Shown: positions 4,304-26,163 of the stretch, in pieces | Numbering within the stretch: the stretch's first letter is position 1 | Layout of the letters: the number at the start of each line of letters is the position of its first letter | Origin: a virus | Lineage: Duplodnaviria > Heunggongvirae > Uroviricota > Caudoviricetes | IMG/VR virus record: IMGVR_UViG_2541047960_000003 | DNA: 26,163 nt | Direction: 5' to 3' (one strand) | Position numbers and translations under genes: made by a program | Notes under the pieces: model-generated | The model's database searches: none | The model's input: only the letters and a program-made list of their open reading frames with translations | What the model was told of the DNA's origin: nothing

Positions 4304-5184
4304 ACACTCCTCGTCAGTATTCTGGCGGCCATTGCACTTAATCCCGGAGACATGCGGTTGAATGCTGTGCCGGCGGCGTTAAGCTGCCCGGAAACGGTAT
4401 CCAGAGCACCTGCAATATTTCTTTTGTCCACACCACTCAGCGCAGACTGTGCCTGCTGTACATACGTGGCTGCTTCGCTGGCTGTTCTGGCCAGACTGAT
4501 GGCATCGGGCATGGATTCAGAGAGTGCGTTAAACGCCGGAACACTTTTCCCCAGAGCCCCGGAGATATTACCCAGTCCGCTCATCAGCCCCGGCACACGG
4601 GTCAGTGCGACAACGGGGTTATCCTTCATTTTCTGTGTCACCCGAACGGCGCTGATAGTGGTCTGGAGTACAGACTGCGCCTGTTTCGCATAGTTGACGC
4701 CGTTGCGGATGAACTGCGCCACCCCTGAAGGTGAAGGAATGGCACCGGAGACCGCCCCGACACCCGGGAGCTTCGTGCGTATTGCCGGTGGTTGCAGAGG
4801 ATTTTTCGGGTCACCGGTGTATTCCCGGAGAGACACGGTGGCACTGACAGCCAGCACGTTGCCGGTACTGTCAGTCTGCTCGCTGGTTGCAGTCACATCG
4901 GTAATCACGAACCAGCCGCGATAGTCACCGTTGCCGAAGACCAGCGCCAGTGCCTGATGGGCTTTCATGGCTGTTCGCAGTCTCGCCAGCTCCACATCGG
5001 GTACACAATAATGCTGATGGAAAACCAGAGTTATCTGGATTTCGTCCAGCCTGTCGCCGACGAACTGCAGGCCAGGCTTACCCCCGATGCGGGCATGCTC
5101 CGCATAATCGACGCCGAACGTGGCCTCGAAGCCGTCCCAGTAGGTAATCAGCTCAAACTCAATATCACCCAGTACGGCAAACAT
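4300..5184 (-). CDS. tail protein U-like, with long Ser/Ala-rich C-terminal extension
   Basis: 294-aa ORF directly after the tape measure gene (1-nt overlap at 5184); assigned by synteny and N-terminal domain feel. Confidence 0.5.
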   Translation of the reverse strand: MFAVLGDIEFELITYWDGFEATFGVDYAEHARIGGKPGLQFVGDRLDEIQITLVFHQHYCVPDVELARLRTAMKAHQALALVFGNGDYRGWFVITDVTATSEQTDSTGNVLAVSATVSLREYTGDPKNPLQPPAIRTKLPGVGAVSGAIPSPSGVAQFIRNGVNYAKQAQSVLQTTISAVRVTQKMKDNPVVALTRVPGLMSGLGNISGALGKSVPAFNALSESMPDAISLARTASEAATYVQQAQSALSGVDKRNIAGALDTVSGQLNAAGTAFNRMSPGLSAMAARILTRSV

Positions 5185-8135
5185 CAGCGGTACTCCTTAC
5201 GTTGTTTCTGAGCCAGCAGACGCTCCAGCATTTTTTCCAGCTCATGCAGACTCATATTCAGGGCACCAGTCAGTCCTGCAGGCGCTGTGGTTTCCCTGCC
5301 ATTGAGGAAAAACTGAGGATTAAAGCTGACCTGGATACCACCAGACGTTCCACCGCCGGTTGCAGCTGCACCACGGCCTGAATATCCGGCAGCCAGGATT
5401 TCAGGCGAGGGGATACGGGGAACATCCGGTGTCATCTCATTTGCCAGACGTTGCCCTGGTAAAATCGATGCCCGGGTGGAGAGCGGAATAGCGGGCATGG
5501 AAGACAAACTATTGATTACGGCTCCGATCGCATTTTTAGCAGACGACATAAACCCATTGATATCGGGCAACGGCATACTGAAGCGAACACCTGAAGTGTT
5601 ATCTCGTATTTCTGGCCCCTGAATGCTCACGGGCATTCTGGGGAGCAGTTCACTGGCCATTCGCTGCCCGGCCAGAGCTGCAAGCGGAGTGGTCCGCTGC
5701 AGGCCAATGGCGGCCCCCTGCGCGATATTGTCACCAAAGCCCATAAACACGCGGCTCGGCGAATGAATGCCCAGCTTTTCGCTGAACCAGCCACTGATGC
5801 TGTCACCCATTCCGGTTACACTGGATTTGAGCGACTCCCATTTGTTTTTGATACCGTTAATCAGACCATCGACAAGATGGCCACCGAAGTCGGTAAACTT
5901 TGCCGGCAGATCAACACCAAGATATTTCAGCGCAACTGCAAAGGCTTTATAGAGCAGACCTGCCGGCGACCAGTTAATCAGCAGCTTACCAGTTCCCGCG
6001 ATACCGCCGTTAAAGGCTTCCTGAATGTCAGCCCAGCACTGTTTAAACCAGCTACTGATGCTGTCACCCATTCCGGTTACACTGGATTTGAGCGACCCCC
6101 ATTTGTTTTTGATACCGTTAATCAGACCGTCGATAAGATGGCCACCGAAGTCGGTGAACTTTGCCGGCAGAGCAACGCCGAAATATTTCAGCGCAGCCGC
6201 AAAGGCTTTATAGAGCAGGCCTGCCGGCGACCAGTTAATCAGCAACTTACCAATTCCCACAATGCCGCCGTTAAAGGCTTCCTGAATGTCTGCCCAGCGC
6301 TGTTTAAACCAGCCACTGACTGCCCCCCAGTTGCGGTAGATAAGGTAAGCTGCTGCCGCGACAGCGGTGATAACGAGACCGATGGGATTCATCATCAGCG
6401 CACGTCCAATCCAGAGAACAGCACGTCCGGCGAGCATAATTCCGCGAACCAGCCCCCCGGAGAGCACGCCACTCAGTGTTCTGGCTCCTCTGGCGACGGC
6501 GCTAAATCCGGTCACCAGCCAGCGGAGCTTACCGCCTTGCCCCAGTGCGAGCGACAGACGAAGCCAGTTGGCCCGAAGTAAAACAGCATTTTTCCAGACA
6601 CTTACAAAGGGGGAAATAAGGAGATTCAGCCCCAGTTTGAGACCAACAGTCGCTATCTTAATCGCAAGGAGCGCACTGATGAGCTTAAAAGCCCCACTGA
6701 CAAATTGCGGGTGAGTCGCTACCCAGTGTTTTGCCCCCTGAATGAGTGGAAGCAGTTCCTGAGTCAAAGAAATAAAAGATGGAGCTAATTGATCGCCCAG
6801 CGTAATTGCCAGATCGCGACTGCTGACCATAAGTGTTTTAGTGGCTTCAAGGGGAGATTTCAGCCGCTGATCATAAGCACTGGCAAGCAAATCGTTATCC
6901 GCAGCCCTGAGAGCACCGGCACGGATCTCTCGATATCTGTCCATGTTGGCCAGCATCGGGCGGATAAATGCCATGACCTGCATATCCGCGAACATATCGC
7001 CCAGACCAAAGTTTTTCGCCAGAGCCTGAAGTGCCTCATCTCTTGCCGTATCATTCTTTATTTTCATGGCTGATTTGAAGCCGGCCAGCGCTTCGGGGCT
7101 TTTGGTATTGAGGTAACGTTCTATAACACTCAACATCCCTTCAATCGGAGAGATCCCCGCAGCTTTATAACTCGCAATAGATCCCTGCAAATCAATACCC
7201 AGATCAGCAAACTGTTTCTGAGTATCGCGGGCAAAAATTTTGGTAAGAAAGTTTTTAAAATTATTGGCTGCTTCGTCGGTGGAACCTGCACCGATTTTTG
7301 CTATCTGGAGACTGGCCCCGATTTCAGCAACAGCCTCTTTTCCACTGGCAATACCCGCCATCATTGGGGCCAGGGACTGCATCCACTTGACCTGATCCGG
7401 GATTTCAAATGACCCCTGGTCACCGGCATAAGCCATAATATTCTGAACGGCACCAAAATCTCTGGCCGCACCTTTCAGGGAGTTTTGCCAGACTGCGGCC
7501 ACTTTTGCCCAGTCCTGAGCAGACGTGCGTGTTGCCGTTGCCGCGCGGGCAATATCCGGCATCAGAAAACCGATATCTGACACATTATCAATATTGTCGC
7601 TGATGAGTGAACCCACCGCCTCCTGCAGCTCATCCTGATACTGATTGTATTTAAGCGCCCAGCCTTTTATCTGTCCGGCAAGTGCATCCCGCGTTTTATT
7701 GTCATATTTTGCGGTGATCGACATATCAATCATTTTGTCCTGAAAAAACATGGACTGCTGAACGGCAGGGGAAACCGTATGATAAACAGTCTGAGCCATG
7801 CCATACGCTTCAATCCCCTGACCATACAGCGCCATGCGGTTAGCTTTCAGCGCATCACTGGTAGCGGATGCCGCTGACAGACGGCGCTGCTGGCGCTCAA
7901 TTTGCTCCATGGTGCGGCTTACCCGCAGCAGCTCGCTGTTGAGATGCTGCATCCGGGAAGAACCCAGTTGACCATAACGTTCTGTTGCACGGGTTAAAGC
8001 GTTCTGACGTTCCTGCAGGCGGCGTGAGGTATCGCTCAGGGAATCAAGCGCACGGCGGGTACCGCTCATTGCAGAACGGAATGTGCTGCCAATCATCCCG
8101 CCGATAACAACGCCGACTGAAAACTGTCCCGACAT
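5184..8135 (-). CDS. tail tape measure protein
   Basis: 983-aa ORF downstream of the tail chaperone pair; coiled-coil N-terminus, Gly/Ala-rich hydrophobic central region, internal tandem repeat; canonical position. Confidence 0.85.
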   Translation of the reverse strand: MSGQFSVGVVIGGMIGSTFRSAMSGTRRALDSLSDTSRRLQERQNALTRATERYGQLGSSRMQHLNSELLRVSRTMEQIERQQRRLSAASATSDALKANRMALYGQGIEAYGMAQTVYHTVSPAVQQSMFFQDKMIDMSITAKYDNKTRDALAGQIKGWALKYNQYQDELQEAVGSLISDNIDNVSDIGFLMPDIARAATATRTSAQDWAKVAAVWQNSLKGAARDFGAVQNIMAYAGDQGSFEIPDQVKWMQSLAPMMAGIASGKEAVAEIGASLQIAKIGAGSTDEAANNFKNFLTKIFARDTQKQFADLGIDLQGSIASYKAAGISPIEGMLSVIERYLNTKSPEALAGFKSAMKIKNDTARDEALQALAKNFGLGDMFADMQVMAFIRPMLANMDRYREIRAGALRAADNDLLASAYDQRLKSPLEATKTLMVSSRDLAITLGDQLAPSFISLTQELLPLIQGAKHWVATHPQFVSGAFKLISALLAIKIATVGLKLGLNLLISPFVSVWKNAVLLRANWLRLSLALGQGGKLRWLVTGFSAVARGARTLSGVLSGGLVRGIMLAGRAVLWIGRALMMNPIGLVITAVAAAAYLIYRNWGAVSGWFKQRWADIQEAFNGGIVGIGKLLINWSPAGLLYKAFAAALKYFGVALPAKFTDFGGHLIDGLINGIKNKWGSLKSSVTGMGDSISSWFKQCWADIQEAFNGGIAGTGKLLINWSPAGLLYKAFAVALKYLGVDLPAKFTDFGGHLVDGLINGIKNKWESLKSSVTGMGDSISGWFSEKLGIHSPSRVFMGFGDNIAQGAAIGLQRTTPLAALAGQRMASELLPRMPVSIQGPEIRDNTSGVRFSMPLPDINGFMSSAKNAIGAVINSLSSMPAIPLSTRASILPGQRLANEMTPDVPRIPSPEILAAGYSGRGAAATGGGTSGGIQVSFNPQFFLNGRETTAPAGLTGALNMSLHELEKMLERLLAQKQRKEYR
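5779..6322. repeat. in-frame tandem duplication (2 x 261 bp plus ~22 bp of a third unit) inside the tape measure gene
   Basis: Unit starts at ~5779 and ~6040 (aaccagcYactgatgctgtcacccattccggttacactggatttgagcga...), begins again at ~6301 then diverges. Encodes two ~87-aa protein repeats (SWFKQRWADIQEAFNGG... / SWFKQCWADIQEAFNGG...). Also explains the near-identical antisense ORFs 5767..5952 and 6025..6213. Confidence 0.85.
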
Positions 8136-17516: not shown

Positions 17517-19111
17517 CAGAATCCCTCCAGCATACGGGCCGCCTGACGACGACGGCGTGAGCTTGCCTTCACCGGCCCTTTGTTAATTTCACGGCTGGCG
17601 AAATACGCCAGCGCCAGTGCGATGGCTGAATCCCCGTGGCGTTTACCACCGTCAGCCTTTGCTTTTGAGCGTTGCTCCGGTACGCGGGGGACACCGTTCA
17701 CCACCTGAACGGCCCGCAGGTCATCCAGTGTGTCTTCATCCTTTGGTAAGTCCACCAGGTTACCGTCTTCCAGTGCAGCTTTGACCGGAGGCATATGCTC
17801 CCGGTACCAGCCTTCGGTTGGCATCACCTGCTGAACCCGGCTGGAGCCGTAGCGCTGCATGGCGTATTCAGCCAGATAGGCACCATTACCACGGGCATCA
17901 AACGCTGCACCCAGCAGACCGGGCAGGCCATCCATCAGATACCAGGTGATTTGCTCCTGCTGTCTGAACGGCACGTTACGCAGCTCCAGTACGAATGGCA
18001 CGCGTCGTACCAGGTTCTTCTCCTGCAGCAGGGGATAGTCCACCGACAAATCACCGCTACGGCCAAAGTCGCGCCCCAGGAAAGAGCGGGCATCAGTGGG
18101 GAGTGCCTCCAGCAAGGGTTTCAGATACTCATCAAGCCAGTCCTGCGTCTCGCGGAAGCGAACCTCATCAGACAGCAGTTCATAACCTTCCTTGCAGGTC
18201 AGACGCAATACCGGCGTATCAGCGGACATGCGGGACTCTATCAGGGCACGGGACAGCCAGGCACCGCCACCGTTGGCCGGAATACAGTCAAGCTCTTCGG
18301 ATGCGCCGGCACCGTAGAATTTGTACACCGATGCCATCCAGGCCTGCTCGGATGCCTCCGACCATTCCTTCCCGGTGCGCAGACAGACGCGCCGGAACAG
18401 CCCCTCAGATACGGCTTCCCGGAAAGTGATGCGATGTATGCTGCCTCCCTGACGTCCGGCACGGATATCCCCGATAAGCGTATTGAACGGATTGTCGTCA
18501 CCGTCATGGGTGGAGATAACGCGTACCTTTCCCCCCCAGATAAGCATCGCCAGCGCCGCTTTCAGCAGTTCGTCCAGTTGCTCATGGAACGCCGCTTCGT
18601 CGATAACAATAATACCCTGACGGCCACGCAGGTTAGACGGGCGGCTGGAGAGCGCAACAATACGAAAGCCGGAGTCAGGAAATTTGATGGTGTAAGTCTT
18701 GATGTGTTTGTCGTCGTCGTCCTCTTCCCAGAATCCTTCTTCAATTTCACTGGCCGCATAGTTGAATGCCCGTGCCCACATCGCACACGCCTGAATGTAT
18801 TCGACGGTCATGTCCTGGTTATAAGCGATGTAATACACATTCATCCCGCCTGCTGGCGCAGAAGAGGCGGCGGTCAGTACGTTATCGGATGCCTCAGCCC
18901 ATGTAATACCGGTACGACGGCTCTTTTCTATCACCTTAAGCGGAGAGGTGTCTGCCACCCAGCGCTGCTGGTAAGGCAACAGAACGGGAGGGGCATCCAG
19001 CGCCGAGGTATCAGGCAAAACGGGAGCAAGGTTATTCCTCCCGTCCATGGGACTCATCCCTTCGGGGCCGCCGCCAGCGGCGTTTAAAATCACTCCGGAT
19101 GATTTTGTCAT
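17516..19111 (-). CDS. terminase large subunit (Mu gp28-like)
   Basis: 531-aa ORF preceding the portal gene; acidic EEDDDDK patch and overall size typical of a large terminase. Confidence 0.8.
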   Translation of the reverse strand: MTKSSGVILNAAGGGPEGMSPMDGRNNLAPVLPDTSALDAPPVLLPYQQRWVADTSPLKVIEKSRRTGITWAEASDNVLTAASSAPAGGMNVYYIAYNQDMTVEYIQACAMWARAFNYAASEIEEGFWEEDDDDKHIKTYTIKFPDSGFRIVALSSRPSNLRGRQGIIVIDEAAFHEQLDELLKAALAMLIWGGKVRVISTHDGDDNPFNTLIGDIRAGRQGGSIHRITFREAVSEGLFRRVCLRTGKEWSEASEQAWMASVYKFYGAGASEELDCIPANGGGAWLSRALIESRMSADTPVLRLTCKEGYELLSDEVRFRETQDWLDEYLKPLLEALPTDARSFLGRDFGRSGDLSVDYPLLQEKNLVRRVPFVLELRNVPFRQQEQITWYLMDGLPGLLGAAFDARGNGAYLAEYAMQRYGSSRVQQVMPTEGWYREHMPPVKAALEDGNLVDLPKDEDTLDDLRAVQVVNGVPRVPEQRSKAKADGGKRHGDSAIALALAYFASREINKGPVKASSRRRRQAARMLEGF

Positions 19112-19203
19112 GTGGCAATCCCCAGAATCTCGCGACGAAGCGCCTGTACTGCGTCGCTTGACAGTCCCCCCTTACGGGCAATTTTCTCGGCGTTGCTGGC
19201 TGC

Positions 19204-19653
19204 CTACTGCGCTCTGGCCCGTACTTCAGACTGGAACTTTTTGAGGTTGACGGACGCGCGGGACAGCGTAGCCACATTCTTCGCCACCTTCGACAGCAGG
19301 GCCACGCGTTCTTTAGGATCGACTTCGCCTTCTTCCGCCTCCTGCAACTGGACAATACTCTCGAACAGCTCGGTCTGAATAAGGGCTATCACAGCCTCCG
19401 AACGCGCATCCTGATCGTCTGCTGCGCCTTCGGTCAGCATGCGGGCCGCTTCTGTTGCCGCACGGATAGCACCATAGCGGCGCTCAATCTTCTGTCCATA
19501 GCGATGGATAGCGGATTTGCTGATGACGTACCCCCGCTCACGCAGCAGGGACTCCAGCTCGTTATACCCGCTGAAGCCGGATTCAGTCAGCGCCCGTTCA
19601 AGCCAGCGGCGCACGTCTTCCGGCAGCTTTTCTATTGTGCTGCGTCTGGCCAT
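19204..19653 (-). CDS. Mu gp27-like protein (putative small terminase / DNA-binding)
   Basis: 149-aa ORF upstream of the large terminase with an N-terminal HTH-like segment (SGYNELESLLRERGYVISKSAIHRYG). Confidence 0.5.
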   Translation of the reverse strand: MARRSTIEKLPEDVRRWLERALTESGFSGYNELESLLRERGYVISKSAIHRYGQKIERRYGAIRAATEAARMLTEGAADDQDARSEAVIALIQTELFESIVQLQEAEEGEVDPKERVALLSKVAKNVATLSRASVNLKKFQSEVRARAQ

Positions 19654-21663: not shown

Positions 21664-22014
21664 TTAAAGCCCCATCGCAACAGCCAGGCAGACCGCTGCA
21701 ACAATCAGTGCACGGCGGATTAACGCAGCAGAAAACACCAGGTGAAGGCCGGTCTGTACCGGGAAACGCCCTTCAGCCATCAGCCTGTCGTCATGTTTCA
21801 GGTACTGACCGGGACGGGCTTTGGGGAAGAGCGAACGGTCAAGCCAGTAACCCAGCACTGCTGCCAGCGTGATGAGTGCCAGCTTGTAGATCACAACAGG
21901 CAGCTGCTGTGGTGAGACCAGAGCGATGGTGCCCAGCAACAGCACTGAGGTCAGCAGCCAGCCGCTGAGGCGAGGTTTTTTAACAGGGGGAATGAATTTT
22001 TTCAGGTTTTTCAT
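21664..22014 (-). CDS. putative holin (small multi-TM membrane protein)
   Basis: ATG at 22012-22014 with GAGGAGA SD; about three hydrophobic segments; first gene of the late operon, immediately upstream of endolysin. Confidence 0.45.
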   Translation of the reverse strand: MKNLKKFIPPVKKPRLSGWLLTSVLLLGTIALVSPQQLPVVIYKLALITLAAVLGYWLDRSLFPKARPGQYLKHDDRLMAEGRFPVQTGLHLVFSAALIRRALIVAAVCLAVAMGL

Positions 22015-22144
22015 GTGTGTCTCCTCGTTTGGTGGAGACAGCATCACAAATACAGGGCGCAAAGGATTTTAAAGCGCGTTAAGAGAGCCGGGGATACGGG
22101 ATGTGCAGGATAAACGATGAATTATTCACAGAGGAGAATACGAT
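22015..22144. promoter_or_regulatory. divergent promoter region (late lysis/structural operon leftward; P-loop gene rightward)
   Basis: 130-bp non-coding gap between the first late gene start (22014) and the plus-strand gene start (22145); no specific promoter boxes confirmed. Confidence 0.3.
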
Positions 22145-22621
22145 ATGACGCACACACTGAATCCGGTCATCACTGTCACTGTGTCCGGTCCTGTGGGCAG
22201 CGGTAAAAGTTACGTACTGGCGCGGATAGAAGAGATGGTGAAACAGGAACTCGGAAACAGCGTCATTGTCGATGCTGCTGACGTGGAGAATGAGCGCCGT
22301 ATGAATGGCGAAGATCTGACGACCTGGCAGAAGCCACGGGGTGGCACAGTGATCAGGCTAGAGGAATACACGGGACAGGGCCTGTTGTCATACGGCGAGG
22401 AGCGTATCTGTCGGACGAATGAGCTGCTGGATGTTATATGCCCCACGGGCCGGCAACCCTGGATACTGCCCGATGCACTGCATGCCACCATTGCGGCACT
22501 GATGACAGTTTACGATCAGGAGCTGCTCATGAAGGAGTTACGTAAACTCACCGGTCAGCCAACAGAATGTTGTTCGTCTCCGAAGTACGGCAAACAGGAA
22601 AACGCCCCGGATAATCCTTAA
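22145..22621 (+). CDS. small P-loop (Walker A) protein, possible small kinase-fold protein
   Basis: 158-aa ORF; SD GAGGAG 8 nt before ATG; VITVTVSGPVGSGKSYV Walker A at residues 15-22, then VIVDAAD acidic motif about 20 residues later. Confidence 0.5.
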   Translation: MTHTLNPVITVTVSGPVGSGKSYVLARIEEMVKQELGNSVIVDAADVENERRMNGEDLTTWQKPRGGTVIRLEEYTGQGLLSYGEERICRTNELLDVICPTGRQPWILPDALHATIAALMTVYDQELLMKELRKLTGQPTECCSSPKYGKQENAPDNP

Positions 22622-22640
22622 GATACCTCCTGAACAGAAA

Positions 22641-22656
22641 CAGCCCTGAAGGGCTG
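22641..22656 (-). terminator. candidate intrinsic terminator ending the repressor-operon transcript
   Basis: CAGCCC-TGAA-GGGCTG hairpin 2 nt after the stop of the 196-aa gene; on minus-strand RNA it is followed by UUUCUGUU; on plus-strand RNA it is followed by A-rich sequence, so it is unidirectional. Confidence 0.4.
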
Positions 22657-22658
22657 CA

Positions 22659-23249
22659 CTAAAAAAAGAAGTGTATTATTGCCCAAACAGCTATAACGAT
22701 GATTCCCAGCCCAAGAGCCGATTCTAACTTATCTTTGGCAGTCATTTTTACTGTTGTAGCGGGCGCAGGTAAGTCTTGCTGCTGTGGATTTTCTGTTAGT
22801 TGTTTACGAGAAGAAACATCGCCCCTATTAGTTTGCTTCATGTTGATTACAGATGCGTTATGGGCATTATCAGCAGCAATTGACTGAAGTTTTACAAAAG
22901 TTTTTGAATCTGTTTTAGCCAGAAGTAACCTATTTCCCGTAAACATTGCCTTAAAAGTGATAGTTTTTTTCGTCTTGTCCGCCGCACCAAGCAAACCTCC
23001 AATGACCAACCCTGCACCACCAAAGATTAATCCACCAAGCAAACCTGCGCCTGCCGCCTTACCTATACGGCTTTCCTCTTCACTATCCGCAAGTTCAATC
23101 GATAAAAGCTCTTCTTTCAGATTTAATACAATATTTTCAGGAAAGCCTTGTTTTGGTTTTTTGGCAAACACGATGGTACCGAACCCCATGCTTGCCCACC
23201 CTTTAGGAAAACTTCCTGCGATAACCTGAATCCCTGCCATGTTCATCAC
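22659..23249 (-). CDS. glycine-zipper membrane protein of unknown function
   Basis: ~193-196-aa ORF (GTG/ATG start cluster at 23238-23249 after AAAGGTG); GxxxG-rich segment AAGAGLLGGLIFGGAGLVIGGLLGAA and C-terminal TM LGLGIIVIAVWAIIHFFF; AT-rich codon usage. Confidence 0.5.
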   Translation of the reverse strand: MMNMAGIQVIAGSFPKGWASMGFGTIVFAKKPKQGFPENIVLNLKEELLSIELADSEEESRIGKAAGAGLLGGLIFGGAGLVIGGLLGAADKTKKTITFKAMFTGNRLLLAKTDSKTFVKLQSIAADNAHNASVINMKQTNRGDVSSRKQLTENPQQQDLPAPATTVKMTAKDKLESALGLGIIVIAVWAIIHFFF

Positions 23250-23330
23250 CTTTTACATTAAAATTTCAGAACGCAGCATGATGCCGCCTTTGTCTTTTTT
23301 CTGATCCCATGGTAATTCAGCTGTTATTTT

Positions 23331-24317
23331 CTATTTAAGAATAAAACGGTATTTACTGTCAGGAGTGCTTTGCTGATCAAGTAGCAGTGAACGACATGGA
23401 GCAGTCAAAACCCGAGCATAACTACCATCAGGGCTTATGTTAATGTAACAAACCTTGCCCTTAACACTATAATTTTCGGGGACGGATGCCTTTGCTGATA
23501 CAGTAAATTTAAGGGTATGCCAGCCCGTTTTTTGCTTGTAGCTTGAAACCGAATGGAAATCATCTGAGTACTTATTTAACCCTGGAAACATGCTGCGCAG
23601 TGCGGGGATGGAATCTTCTATTATTTTATCGTTGGTTTTAATGTTAAAAACGCTGGTTTCAGTAGAAGCTACTGCTTTGGCATTTCCCCATTTACCAGCG
23701 AACACAATCATTCCCACGAAAAATATTGCTACAAGAACTAACACTCCCCCCAACACTACTACATGAGGCTTCCGGCTTCTGGTTGGTACAGTTGCGACTG
23801 ATTTTGCACCGCTTTCCGATGGAGGTGATAGAGTTTTACTCTCATCACGAATATTCAGCAGATCATCAAAATAACCAAACACAGCCTGCAACTGCTCTTT
23901 GTCTAGGCCTTTAAGATGGGTTGTACCGAAATGCTTCAGACAGTATCTGTCACGGTCAAGACGATACCCAGGGTCAGTAAGCGCCATTATTTTGCTGACC
24001 AGAAGATTACAGTCCTTCATATTCTGGATCTGTTGTGCATATCTCTGAAGGATCTCAACCGCACCATGATAATCAGCCGCAGTCATTTCATTAACTGTTT
24101 TGGTATTAAGTTTCGTGTGGATCGTCATCCATAGCTCGCGCTTACTTTCCCCCAGATCAACCAATTCATCCATCAATCTGTGTAAATCGCGTTTTTGCAG
24201 CAACGAAATTGGTTGCTGGGCCGAAGGAAGTATGTCAGCAGAATAGTTATGAATGGTAACATCACCGCTGACAACGTTACCCACATCCCCGTTAACTGTT
24301 TGCTTCTCTTTACTCAT
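23331..24317 (-). CDS. single-pass membrane protein of unknown function, translationally coupled to the repressor
   Basis: 328-aa ORF; ATG at 24315-24317 overlaps repressor stop (ATGA); ~190-aa N-terminal domain, one TM (HVVVLGGVLVLVAIFFVGMIVFAG), ~115-aa C-terminal domain. Confidence 0.55.
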   Translation of the reverse strand: MSKEKQTVNGDVGNVVSGDVTIHNYSADILPSAQQPISLLQKRDLHRLMDELVDLGESKRELWMTIHTKLNTKTVNEMTAADYHGAVEILQRYAQQIQNMKDCNLLVSKIMALTDPGYRLDRDRYCLKHFGTTHLKGLDKEQLQAVFGYFDDLLNIRDESKTLSPPSESGAKSVATVPTRSRKPHVVVLGGVLVLVAIFFVGMIVFAGKWGNAKAVASTETSVFNIKTNDKIIEDSIPALRSMFPGLNKYSDDFHSVSSYKQKTGWHTLKFTVSAKASVPENYSVKGKVCYINISPDGSYARVLTAPCRSLLLDQQSTPDSKYRFILK

Positions 24318-24775
24318 CTTCTCTTGGTATTTTTGTTCATTATTCCACCTGTTCCTATGGTTACGTTACCTTTGATAACATTCCCCAGAACATCTCCATG
24401 AATAACCTGTTCCGCCCGTTCTCTGGAGGAGCCAGTAGTCAAGGCCGACAAAACTGAACCTTTGACCTGTAATGGTGCCTGCCGGTAGTGCTGCAGTAAC
24501 TCCATTTCATCACGTGATAAAGTTATACCTGATGACTCCCCGGTAAGAATGAACTGTACATTGGCCCCAATTCTTGCAAAGGCTGCAAGTAACTCACCTC
24601 CGGGAACAGCAACCCCTCGTTCATATTTCCCCCACATTTCTCTTGAAACGCCACAAAGGGCTGCTACTTCAGCCTGCTTGAGTGATAACCGCGAACGCTC
24701 AGCTTTGAACCGCGACGCGCAAAGAGAATCAAAATTCACATAAACCTCATTGGCAATGAGAACAATAGTTCTCAT
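24314..24775 (-). CDS. XRE-family HTH transcriptional repressor (putative immunity repressor)
   Basis: 153-aa ORF with classic HTH_XRE segment (LSLKQAEVAALCGVSREMWGKYERG); divergent from the early operon across a 50-bp gap. Confidence 0.65.
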   Translation of the reverse strand: MRTIVLIANEVYVNFDSLCASRFKAERSRLSLKQAEVAALCGVSREMWGKYERGVAVPGGELLAAFARIGANVQFILTGESSGITLSRDEMELLQHYRQAPLQVKGSVLSALTTGSSRERAEQVIHGDVLGNVIKGNVTIGTGGIMNKNTKRR

Positions 24776-24825
24776 AATCTATCACATATAAAACAAACAT
24801 CATTGCATCAACAAAGGAGACAACA
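24776..24825. promoter_or_regulatory. divergent promoter/operator region between repressor and early operon
   Basis: 50-bp AT-rich gap containing TCACATATA, ATTGCA and the SD AAAGGAGA for the Ner-like gene. Confidence 0.4.
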
Positions 24826-25014
24826 ATGACTTCCGAACAAGTTAAAAATCTCTTCCGTCAGCGTGGTATCACGTTTACCCGCTGGGCCGAAGAACACGGC
24901 TACAGCCGCAATGAGGTCTATCGTGTTCTCAATGGACAGACCAAAGCTCGTTACGGCAAAGCCCATGAAATTGCCGTAAAACTGGGATTAAAACCCACGT
25001 CAAATGCGGCATAA
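24826..25014 (+). CDS. Ner-like small DNA-binding regulator
   Basis: 62-aa ORF with SD AAAGGAGA; HTH-like TRWAEEHGYSRNEVYRVLNG and C-terminal KAHEIAVKLGLKP resembling the Ner/Nlp pattern. Confidence 0.6.
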   Translation: MTSEQVKNLFRQRGITFTRWAEEHGYSRNEVYRVLNGQTKARYGKAHEIAVKLGLKPTSNAA

Positions 25015-25020
25015 ATTTTC

Positions 25021-25051
25021 CACATATGCAACAGGTTATCACATATTGCAA
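25021..25051. promoter_or_regulatory. direct repeats CACATATGCAA / CACATATTGCAA, candidate operator sites
   Basis: Copies at 25021-25031 and 25040-25051 (19-bp spacing) upstream of the winged-helix gene; related CACATAT at 24783-24789 in the divergent promoter gap. Confidence 0.35.
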
Positions 25052-25066
25052 AAATGGAAATGTGAC

Positions 25067-25375
25067 ATGAGTAAAGTAAATATTTCCAGTTCTGGGACCC
25101 GCATCCTACGTGTACTCAAAGCTCTACGCGGTCATGCTCTGAACGGTGTTTCTAACGGTGAACTGGCATCAGCCCTGGGGGAGTCCCCGGCGAATATCAA
25201 TCGAGCACTTAATACCCTTATTGAAGAGGGACTGGCCATGAAATTAGAGAACGGACGTTTCGCACCGGGAATCCAGTTACTACAGATCGCCATGGCTCAC
25301 AGTCACGAGATGGCGCGTGCACAGGATCGTATTAACGAAATCAACCAACGAGTTATTTCAGGTAGTCGTTTGTAA
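25067..25375 (+). CDS. winged-helix (IclR/MarR-like HTH) transcriptional regulator
   Basis: ILRVLKAL...GVSNGELASALGESPANINRALNTLIEEGLA HTH pattern; start set at ATG 25067 (MSKVN...), since the track start at 25004 overlaps the Ner-like gene and the repeats; start uncertain. Confidence 0.5.
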   Translation: MSKVNISSSGTRILRVLKALRGHALNGVSNGELASALGESPANINRALNTLIEEGLAMKLENGRFAPGIQLLQIAMAHSHEMARAQDRINEINQRVISGSRL

Positions 25376-25385
25376 GGAGTAATCA

Positions 25386-26075
25386 ATGGGACGCACCAAA
25401 TCACCCGTTAACACTGAACTGAATGTTGAGGTTCCGCTGTCAGATAACATCAATGTCAATTTGAACGCTATGACACAGCATCGCATGGAAATTATGCAGC
25501 AGTTTGGTGATGGACTGCCTTATGAACGTGATCGCATTGTTCACGAAGCACGTTTTTATATGGCGCAGAGTGCTGAATCTATGCTGGAAGCGGGTAAGCG
25601 GCTGATCATCTTAAAAGAAAATGAGCCACACGGTGATTTTACAAACATTTTAGAAAATGAACTCGGACTTGCACCACAAGTTGCTCGCCGCATGATGCAA
25701 GCCAGTATGAAGTTTTTGGGAGAAGGTGATGAGCCAACAAAACGCTCAACGTTGAGCGTTTTGGGGAAAGCCAAACTGTACGACCTGATGGTTCTGGATA
25801 ATGAAGAACTTGATGAATTGGCCGACGGCGGCACAGTTGCCGGCCTGACGCTTGACGACGTTGATCGCATGTCAGTACGTGAATTGCGTCAGGCCCTGCG
25901 CGAAGCGCGCGAAACCAACGCAGCACAACAGCGCGTACTCGCTGACAAAAATGAAAAAATAGACTCACTCTCCACCAGACTGGAGAAGAAATCCCGTATT
26001 CAGCCGCCTGAGCCTGATGAAGAGGTTAAGAAGCTGCGGGCGGAAGTGACAGCATTAGCGGTTGAGGCGGAATGA
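25386..26075 (+). CDS. conserved early-region protein of transposable prophages (DUF3102-like by recall)
   Basis: 229-aa ORF with strong SD TAAGGAGTAATCA before ATG; charged helical C-terminus; stop overlaps a following ATG (ATGA at 26072-26075). Confidence 0.5.
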   Translation: MGRTKSPVNTELNVEVPLSDNINVNLNAMTQHRMEIMQQFGDGLPYERDRIVHEARFYMAQSAESMLEAGKRLIILKENEPHGDFTNILENELGLAPQVARRMMQASMKFLGEGDEPTKRSTLSVLGKAKLYDLMVLDNEELDELADGGTVAGLTLDDVDRMSVRELRQALREARETNAAQQRVLADKNEKIDSLSTRLEKKSRIQPPEPDEEVKKLRAEVTALAVEAE

Positions 26076-26163
26076 ACCGCCCCGGGTTTCCTGGAGAGTG
26101 TTTTATCTGTGAACTCAGGCTGCCAGATCATCGTTTCCGATGGAAGCATAATAAGCTTTTTCT

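Follow-up and report, generated by a model that had tools for sequence, protein, structure and literature searches.

Matching terminal motifs in a prophage repressor and its membrane-bound neighbour within an exchangeable immunity cassette of a BcepMu-like Escherichia coli prophage

An AT-rich cassette between lysis genes and early operon

The 26,163 nucleotides of viral DNA analysed here (IMG/VR record IMGVR_UViG_2541047960_000003; the whole stretch is referred to as the window) belong to a BcepMu-like (Bcepmuvirus-type, transposable) prophage of Escherichia coli. Our subject is an exchangeable, AT-rich immunity cassette at positions 22610..24773, 2.16 kb in length, and the three co-oriented minus-strand genes that it carries: an XRE-family prophage repressor of 153 amino acids (aa; 24314..24775), a 328-aa bitopic inner-membrane protein (23331..24317) and a PH_gly_zipper membrane protein (22659..23240; 193 aa from its ATG, the open reading frame (ORF) extending to a GTG at 23249 and 196 aa). 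The C-terminal tail of the repressor and the N-terminus of the 328-aa protein carry the same short motif, and the two genes form a conserved unit. A first-pass annotation, made from the letters alone, had drawn four ORFs in this region and they lie where it placed them; likewise its ATGA overlap between the repressor and the 328-aa gene, the single strong transmembrane (TM) segment of the latter, the glycine-zipper protein and the Walker A motif of a fourth, convergent gene product were all borne out.

The borders of the cassette are defined by comparison with phage PhiKM, which is otherwise 82-98% identical. In blastn alignments the DNA homology ends at 22609 and resumes at 24774, the last base before the repressor start, and the variable unit therefore consists of the three minus-strand genes together with a terminator-like GC hairpin (22640..22657, minus strand). 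The hairpin is situated between the end of the cassette operon and that of the convergent P-loop gene, and it is the sole terminator-like site within 21900-25200; Rfam returned no RNA family for 21900-25400. The block has a GC content of 43.3% compared with 56.4 +/- 2.1% in equal-sized windows of the late region, about six standard deviations below, with single 60-bp lines across 22680-23640 ranging from 30 to 53%. The AT-richness that had been proposed for 22063-24775 is thus real for this block, although the contrast had been overdrawn: the sheath gene has a GC content of 57% and not about 65%, and the early operon is also low at 48%. The equivalent cassettes of relatives are likewise AT-rich (44-48% versus 57-62% in their late genes).

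The contents of the site vary between homologous prophages. In PhiKM an unannotated XRE repressor of 118 aa and a Dam methylase are found there, along with two small ORFs and the P-loop gene at full length; in Klebsiella phage KP12 a lipoprotein of 177 aa comes after a repressor of 136 aa; and in Citrobacter prophages a CI-type repressor directly precedes a PH_gly_zipper protein. Prophages of Yersinia, Serratia and Salmonella encode homologues of the window repressor and of the 328-aa protein with an equal 4-bp overlap, succeeded by differing third genes. The segment 22610-24773 is a swappable immunity cassette in a mosaic slot and not random cargo. As a side observation, the repressor ORF of PhiKM (L002, PQ738613) lies at 4884-5240 on the minus strand, in the immunity position, and the deposited annotation makes this phage look repressor-less.

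The coupling of the membrane protein genes to the repressor also held up. Genes 1 and 2 are joined by the ATGA overlap, genes 2 and 3 are separated by an 81-bp gap, there is no internal terminator and a single hairpin follows gene 3; judged from this layout, the arrangement is consistent with co-transcription of all three genes as one operon.

The repressor and its regulatory region

The repressor comprises a helix-turn-helix (HTH) domain at about residues 20-75, a conserved helical segment at 85-115 and the C-terminal tail motif. HTH_31 and HTH_3 are the sole Pfam domains matched, with no S24 peptidase domain. Its gene is transcribed divergently from a gp16-family HTH early gene and is positioned with the holin on one side and, on the other, the early operon of gp16, IclR-like and DUF3102 genes followed by the transposase. 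Gene 1 is a maintenance repressor without a self-cleavage domain. Amongst its relatives the HTH half is variable, and the C-terminal half including the tail is about 95% conserved.

A 50-bp divergent regulatory region (24776..24825) separates the repressor from the gp16-family gene. It contains one copy of an exact 10-bp repeat, TATCACATAT, at 24780-24789, the other copy being located between the gp16-family and IclR-like genes at 25037-25046; a related sequence, TTCCACATATGCAACA, occurs at 25018, near the second copy. The TATCACATAT and TTCCACATATGCAACA sites may be operators, and the two copies of TATCACATAT are not significant alone, given that 21 of 100 shuffles reach two matches.

Anatomy of the 328-aa membrane protein

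The product of gene 2 is built from four parts, all encoded on the minus strand. The N-terminal motif VNGDVGNVVSGDVTIHNY (residues 8-25; 24243..24296), which matches the repressor tail, is followed by a cytoplasmic helical domain termed Flk_N (residues 31-160; 23838..24227), a TM segment (residues 186-208; 23694..23762; KD19 = 3.05) with basic residues before it, and a periplasmic C-terminal alpha/beta domain, 'Cdom' (residues 221-328; 23334..23657), that contains two invariant cysteines and is homologous to lipoproteins or TM-anchored proteins of 130-200 aa. The assignment of the helical domain rests on an hhalign comparison with the tail-anchored Flk_N family (99.9% probability, E = 4e-34), on the precomputed Pfam PF27202 Flk_N match of a cluster with 100% identity (P0001) and of several relatives, and on the NCBIfam Flk profile PRK10715, to which residues 19-147 align over positions 14-143 of 339 (E = 3e-12). 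The first-pass annotation had assigned neither membrane protein to a recognised family; both in fact belong to Pfam families, PF27202 Flk_N and PF27000 PH_gly_zipper, respectively. Its view that they have no role in morphogenesis or lysis agrees with profile searches, which returned no morphogenesis, lysis or transposition homologue for either.

An AlphaFold2 (AF2) model of the 328-aa protein has a predicted local distance difference test score (pLDDT) above 90 for the helical domain at 39-160 and for the alpha/beta domain at 221-328, with the TM helix at 189-207. In this monomer the N-terminus is disordered, the N-terminal motif having a pLDDT of about 41; residues 8-25 are nonetheless invariant in 18 homologues of 44-82% overall identity. 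Fold searches with the protein against the Protein Data Bank (PDB) and viral models gave nothing significant, and when the Flk_N family profile was compared with PDB sequences no match had an E below 0.19.

In an exhaustive profile search the matches to the 328-aa protein fall into N-half-only and C-half-only families, from which we conclude that the protein is a fusion of two units. Members of the N-half-only family are about 185-270 aa long and have a C-terminal TM segment, i.e. they are tail-anchored; those of the C-half-only family are about 130-200 aa long and start with a lipoprotein signal or a TM segment. One subfamily has the two units side by side as distinct genes in 12 of its 31 loci, where the repressor is followed first by Flk_N and then by the lipoprotein. 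Since the C-half homologues are lipoproteins or signal-anchored and encoded by separate genes, the N-terminus is assigned to the cytoplasm and the C-terminus to the periplasm.

A motif common to both proteins

The repressor tail motif, VIHGDVLGNVIKGNVTIGTGG (residues 124-144; 24344..24406, minus strand), aligns to the N-terminal motif of the 328-aa protein with a Smith-Waterman score of 55, as against 19.4 +/- 4.1 for shuffled tails. The common motif is about 20 aa long (about 20-25), Gly/Asn-rich (G 14%, N 11%) and also rich in S and V. Repressor and partner have it in common in about 120 loci of BcepMu-like and other, probably P2-like, prophages. Across 76 unique pairs the mean score of tail versus N-terminus is 54, compared with 19.4 +/- 4.1 and a maximum of 42 for shuffled tails. 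The pairs fall into three motif classes, whose tails score 47-56 with N-termini of their own class and 17-33 across classes. In the viral loci the repressors end in ...G.G(N/Q)R(V/I/T/A)AGRD(Y/F)(N/H)E.KK and their partners start with M.V...G..NR.AGRD(F/Y).E; a second Flk_N subfamily displays the third motif type, with the repressor tail ...TFHGAVGQAVAGNITNKSGVTFNVG and the partner N-terminus ...DFHGEVGQAAGGDINNYGVNISL.

The tail motif is absent from the repressors at the same site that are without a Flk_N partner (PhiKM, KP12 and Citrobacter), and the N-terminal motif is absent from chromosomal Flk-type proteins. A recent gene conversion was considered as the source of the duplicated motif and rejected, the two DNA copies in the window being only moderately similar on reading of the printed sequences.

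A fourth Flk_N subfamily (loci L124, L125 and L013) stands apart from this pattern. Its members begin with a helical extension, M..DE+LAKLAE.L..., and the accompanying repressor has a helical C-terminus, ...LGKILKLVVNR, without the Gly/Asn motif, which suggests that this subfamily pairs differently, possibly via a coiled coil.

Linkage of repressor and Flk_N protein across prophages

Among close viral relatives of the window repressor, a fused partner with the 4-bp overlap is found in 14 of 14. A search of viral contigs with the tail-anchored family provided 80 loci, 78 of which have a homologue of the window repressor upstream on the same strand, mostly at a spacing of 3-26 nt and in five cases with an extra gene of about 0.5 kb between repressor and Flk_N; in the second subfamily the repressor is likewise upstream in 29 of 31 loci. 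The first locus scan used the motif peptide pattern; the upstream repressor and its tail stood outside the selection, and many of the loci are close relatives of each other. A scan of species-representative genomes contributed one further locus only, and a locus scan with P0048 found nothing.

The backbones that carry the module are BcepMu-like in 43 loci and of other kinds, probably P2-like, in 68. Escherichia phage 520873 (Peduoviridae, P2-like) exemplifies the latter, with the order C-type repressor, Flk_N and integrase. The Flk_N gene of this phage (L015, NC_049344; 4001-4396) is unannotated and apparently degraded, leaving a 115-aa ORF without the N-terminal motif, and its close relatives (L063-L095) encode an intact version of 216 aa. 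Taken as a whole, the repressor and the 328-aa protein are a conserved unit, the immunity cassette itself.

Relationship to Flk and to Ant-type antirepressors

Flk (Fluke or RflH) regulates the flagellar secretion switch of Salmonella and E. coli. Anchored in the membrane, it maintains the flagellar export gate in early mode, interacts with FlhA_C in a two-hybrid assay and holds this partner in one state until Flk is removed (PMC13344023). In common with Flk, the window protein has a helical Flk_N domain in the cytoplasm that is held at the inner membrane by a TM segment following it. The window protein differs from Flk in several respects: it scores 46.6 bits against a curated equivalog cut-off of 353 bits, it has one module where Flk has a long repeated body, and it carries in addition an N-terminal motif and a periplasmic domain of 108 aa. 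Whereas Flk is tail-anchored, here a folded domain of about 108 aa lies beyond the TM segment at 186-208. Finally, the gene is prophage-encoded in the immunity region beside a repressor, whereas Flk has neither the motif nor a repressor partner.

A second, distant likeness leads to phage antirepressors. PHROG 245 ('anti-repressor Ant') is matched by 22 of 44 Flk_N family members, with a best E of 2e-8, and a second antirepressor PHROG (2127) by 12 of the 44; a few members have weak Pfam matches to GemA and ORF6C. An hhalign comparison of the Flk_N family with residues 141-189 of P22 Ant gives 60% probability and E = 9e-5 across 49 columns. These profile matches are suggestive of a distant relationship between the Flk_N domain and a module of Ant-type antirepressors such as P22 Ant and the members of PHROGs 245 and 2127, the points of likeness being a helical module of about 50 residues and a proposed action on the phage repressor. 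Unlike those proteins, the window protein is without a Bro-N/AntA N-terminal domain and is anchored in the membrane; furthermore, its gene is part of the repressor operon, whereas Ant is kept silent in the lysogen.

Periplasmic half of the fusion protein and gene 3

The periplasmic domain matches no named family. One of its homologues forms a fusion with two Ltp repeats and with PHROG 'superinfection exclusion' families, and in phage KP12 a homologue is encoded directly after the repressor; for these two reasons an exclusion function is plausible for this domain. Ltp-type exclusion lipoproteins, typified by Ltp of Streptococcus phage TP-J34, resemble its relatives in that the latter are small prophage lipoproteins of lysogeny modules, one of them with two Ltp repeats. 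The window protein itself has no Ltp repeat, and its domain is of an unnamed family and anchored by a TM segment that it has in common with the cytoplasmic half. In cassettes of the Serratia type (L139 and L140; 4530-5057) a second, free-standing homologue of 175 aa follows the fused gene, so that the periplasmic domain occurs twice in one operon.

The product of gene 3 contains a glycine zipper at residues 63-89 and a C-terminal TM segment, and it matches PF27000 PH_gly_zipper, a PH-like fold interrupted by a glycine zipper; apart from this match, PADLOC, NCBIfam and Pfam scans of the 196-aa protein were uninformative. The gene occupies the variable third slot of the operon: it is missing from cassettes that are otherwise 99% identical and have a 203-aa gene in the same place, it follows a different type of repressor in Citrobacter, and it recurs after an HTH/Flk_N pair in a GC-rich compost contig. 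On sequence grounds gene 3 would be an exchangeable passenger with a membrane-active look.

Against the PADLOC-DB v2 models the three cassette proteins produced nothing above noise, the best non-HTH matches having E >= 0.007 over P-loop regions or short stretches and the 196-aa protein having no match. No sequence or profile similarity to RexA or RexB was detected in the cassette proteins.

The flanking P-loop gene and the state of the prophage

The fourth ORF of the region had been counted as a member of the cargo module, and here the earlier description needs to be revised: the block is a three-gene immunity cassette and the P-loop gene (22145..22621, plus strand, 158 aa) is part of its backbone flank. 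We place it outside the block because its composition is backbone-like (GC content 54%, GC at third codon positions (GC3) 60%), because its DNA is 98% identical to PhiKM up to 22609, and because it is truncated at that junction. The protein, whose Walker A motif reads GPVGSGKS, is 92% identical to residues 1-157 of a 242-aa PhiKM protein that runs 85 aa further, and it matches PHROG 3787 (function unknown) over positions 1-157 of 242, short of the full length. The point of truncation coincides with the recombination junction of the cassette. RefSeq names the gene 'ABC transporter ATPase'.

The segment 21600-26073 has 100% identity with the chromosomes of E. coli CE10 and IAI39, two extraintestinal pathogens among the carriers of the cassette, and at least 80% of the query was found in 98 of 5,426 complete E. 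coli genomes. In the RefSeq annotation of CE10 the late, head, tail and lysis genes are all on one strand, and the opposite strand carries an early operon encoding gp16-family HTH, IclR-like HTH and DUF3102 proteins, transposase, ExeA-like ATPase, Gam and Mor. Profile searches identified a holin (PF13272), an SLT transglycosylase and an Rz-like spanin upstream of the cassette, and the BcepMu gp16-family protein, the IclR-type HTH protein and DUF3102 downstream of it.

The copy in the window bears two lesions. Positions 26074-26163 are the end of an IS3-family (IS629-like) insertion sequence (IS), TGAACCGCCCCGGGTTTCCTGG..., which cuts the DUF3102 early gene to 229 aa from 304 aa in CE10 and parts the early promoter region from the transposase genes in the source strain; at this insertion point (26074) the source strain is unlike CE10 and IAI39. 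The Mu gp27-like DUF3486 gene (19108-19653, minus strand) has a premature in-frame stop at codon 150, and in CE10 RefSeq lists a pseudogene with the same defect. In view of the IS insertion and the DUF3486 stop this prophage copy is probably defective, or 'grounded', yet its immunity cassette is intact.

Discussion

The interpretation that we advance, tentatively and as one that is somewhat more apt to prove wrong than right, is that the 328-aa protein serves the repressor as a membrane-tethered, antirepressor-like partner, the two being encoded in the immunity operon and meeting through matched terminal motifs. Translation of gene 2 is coupled to that of gene 1, and its product begins, in the cytoplasmic part, with the motif of the repressor tail. 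The matched motifs, or the Flk_N domain acting on them, would bring the two proteins together, and the tethered partner would set the availability of free repressor, whether by sequestering or by stabilising it. For a repressor without a self-cleavage domain, the level of the free protein would in turn set immunity and the induction threshold. The periplasmic domain may be the input of such a device or, alternatively, an independent superinfection-exclusion function that has been merged with gene 2.

Several observations weigh against this interpretation. The likeness to Ant is weak, with an hhalign probability of 60% across 49 columns, and the window protein itself has no match to the antirepressor PHROGs. 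An antirepressor that is constitutively co-expressed with its target would be awkward unless regulated by a signal, and in the AF2 monomer the N-terminal motif does not dock on the Flk_N domain. Co-variation of the motifs is seen only at the level of the three classes because within a class the own partner is not preferred over other partners (58.3 versus 56.2); the three classes may be three inherited lineages. The presence of the motif in the Flk_N proteins was itself selected for, as the pattern used in the first scan was the motif. Lastly, the slot after Flk_N often holds various secreted proteins, so that the fusion of Flk_N with the periplasmic domain may be a simple merging of genes without a signalling meaning.

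A precedent for membrane proteins encoded in a repressor operon is provided by lambda cI-rexA-rexB and other repressor-operon exclusion genes, e.g. cI-glo-int of K139, where accessory membrane or periplasmic proteins are likewise encoded downstream of a maintenance repressor and are probably expressed in the lysogen. By this analogy, which the first-pass annotation had favoured, the membrane proteins would be exclusion or abortive-infection passengers that use the repressor promoter for expression only; the periplasmic domain would block incoming phage DNA or the entry machinery and the PH_gly_zipper protein would be a second effector, of exclusion or of suicide. We regard this as unlikely overall, its two effector roles included, but as a serious contender. 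The genes do reside within the repressor operon, the third slot differs between nearly identical cassettes, other secreted proteins fill the same slot, and homologues of the periplasmic domain are small lipoproteins directly after repressors, one of them Ltp-fused; glo of Vibrio phage K139 is a periplasmic exclusion protein encoded between cI and int. The proposed exclusion role survives as plausible for the periplasmic domain. The lack of a PADLOC match above noise for any of the three proteins counts against the passenger reading. What passenger genes leave unexplained is the near-constant adjacency of the Flk_N half to one repressor family and the class-matched terminal motifs: Rex has no motif in common with cI, whereas in the present case repressor and partner are conserved together on unrelated backbones, and most Flk_N partners are tail-anchored without any periplasmic part. 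The common terminal motif points to a direct coupling with the repressor.

Such a coupling could take other forms than a tethered antirepressor. Adjacent genes whose products share a short Gly/Asn-rich motif, at the C-terminus of one and the N-terminus of the next and with matched types, are known from the amyloid pairs of fungi (HET-S/NWD2) and bacteria (BASS; Bab/Agp of E. coli), and the geometry of Bab/Agp, an upstream C-terminus and a downstream N-terminus, is equal to the one described here (bioRxiv 10.1101/2024.11.07.622273). As in NLR/effector and Bab/Agp pairs, a signal would then cause one partner to seed the fold of the other by beta-templating, and the repressor would be aggregated and inactivated (an SOS-independent induction) or the membrane protein activated as a death effector. 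The length of the motif (about 20-25 aa), its richness in G, N, S and V, its disorder in the monomer model and the three classes matched between partners are all in keeping with this proposal, which is drawn from composition and geometry. We nevertheless think it decidedly improbable, along with both of its outcomes. The commonest class, NRxAGRD[YF]xE, is highly charged, partner specificity within a class is lacking, and HTH and Flk_N are the only domains found, NLR/STAND, Bell and HeLo domains being absent; where the amyloid pairs consist of an NLR or sensor and a pore-forming effector, the present pair consists of a DNA-binding repressor and a Flk_N membrane protein. We are similarly doubtful of a broader version, in which a maintenance repressor is wired to an inner-membrane protein by a self-matching amyloid-like motif, envelope or membrane events reach the lysis-lysogeny switch or a suicide response via templated co-assembly and not via RecA-dependent cleavage or a soluble antirepressor, and the module has spread over BcepMu-like and P2-like prophages in Enterobacterales and in probable relatives of Pseudomonas.

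The motif could instead be a tag that is read by a third party (a protease, a chaperone or a membrane-targeting factor), in which case the membrane protein, as a decoy or competitor, would shield or expose the repressor. Precedents are at hand in Mu-type repressors, which are controlled via C-terminal tails recognised by ClpXP, and in lambda CIII, which protects CII from FtsH. A common receptor predicts the observed lack of preference for the own partner within a class, and each protein carries the motif at its very terminus, where it has been conserved despite divergence of the HTH. Three quite different classes across probably related hosts argue against one conserved host receptor, though, and the sequences offer no candidate for the third party, so that we consider this explanation a long shot. 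Least of all do we expect the 328-aa protein to be a phage-borne mimic of Flk that acts on the flagellar type III export gate FlhA and alters the motility or flagellin display of the lysogen. Homology to the N-terminal domain of Flk, which in the flagellar system locks secretion in its early mode and gives a two-hybrid interaction with FlhA_C (PMC13344023), is what speaks for it; the score of 46.6 bits against a cut-off of 353, the presence of only one of the repeated Flk modules, the linkage to repressors and not to flagellar genes, and a repressor-matching motif that true Flk does not have make it very improbable indeed.

A tethered partner of the repressor would have implications beyond this prophage. 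Most known prophage induction proceeds through RecA-mediated cleavage of the repressor or through soluble antirepressors, and to our knowledge host sensing is poorly understood in those Mu-like and P2-like prophages whose repressors are short and non-cleavable. Our literature search found no paper describing a coupling between a repressor and a Flk_N protein, and the motif-sharing pair suggests that the lysogeny switch is under a membrane-linked control as yet undescribed. With a membrane partner bearing the same motif as its constant companion, such a repressor provides a concrete route from the cell envelope to that switch. The cassette also supplies the first genomic context for two recently named and functionally blank Pfam families, PH_gly_zipper and, outside flagella, Flk_N, and the prophage context of the latter may shed light on how Flk itself works.

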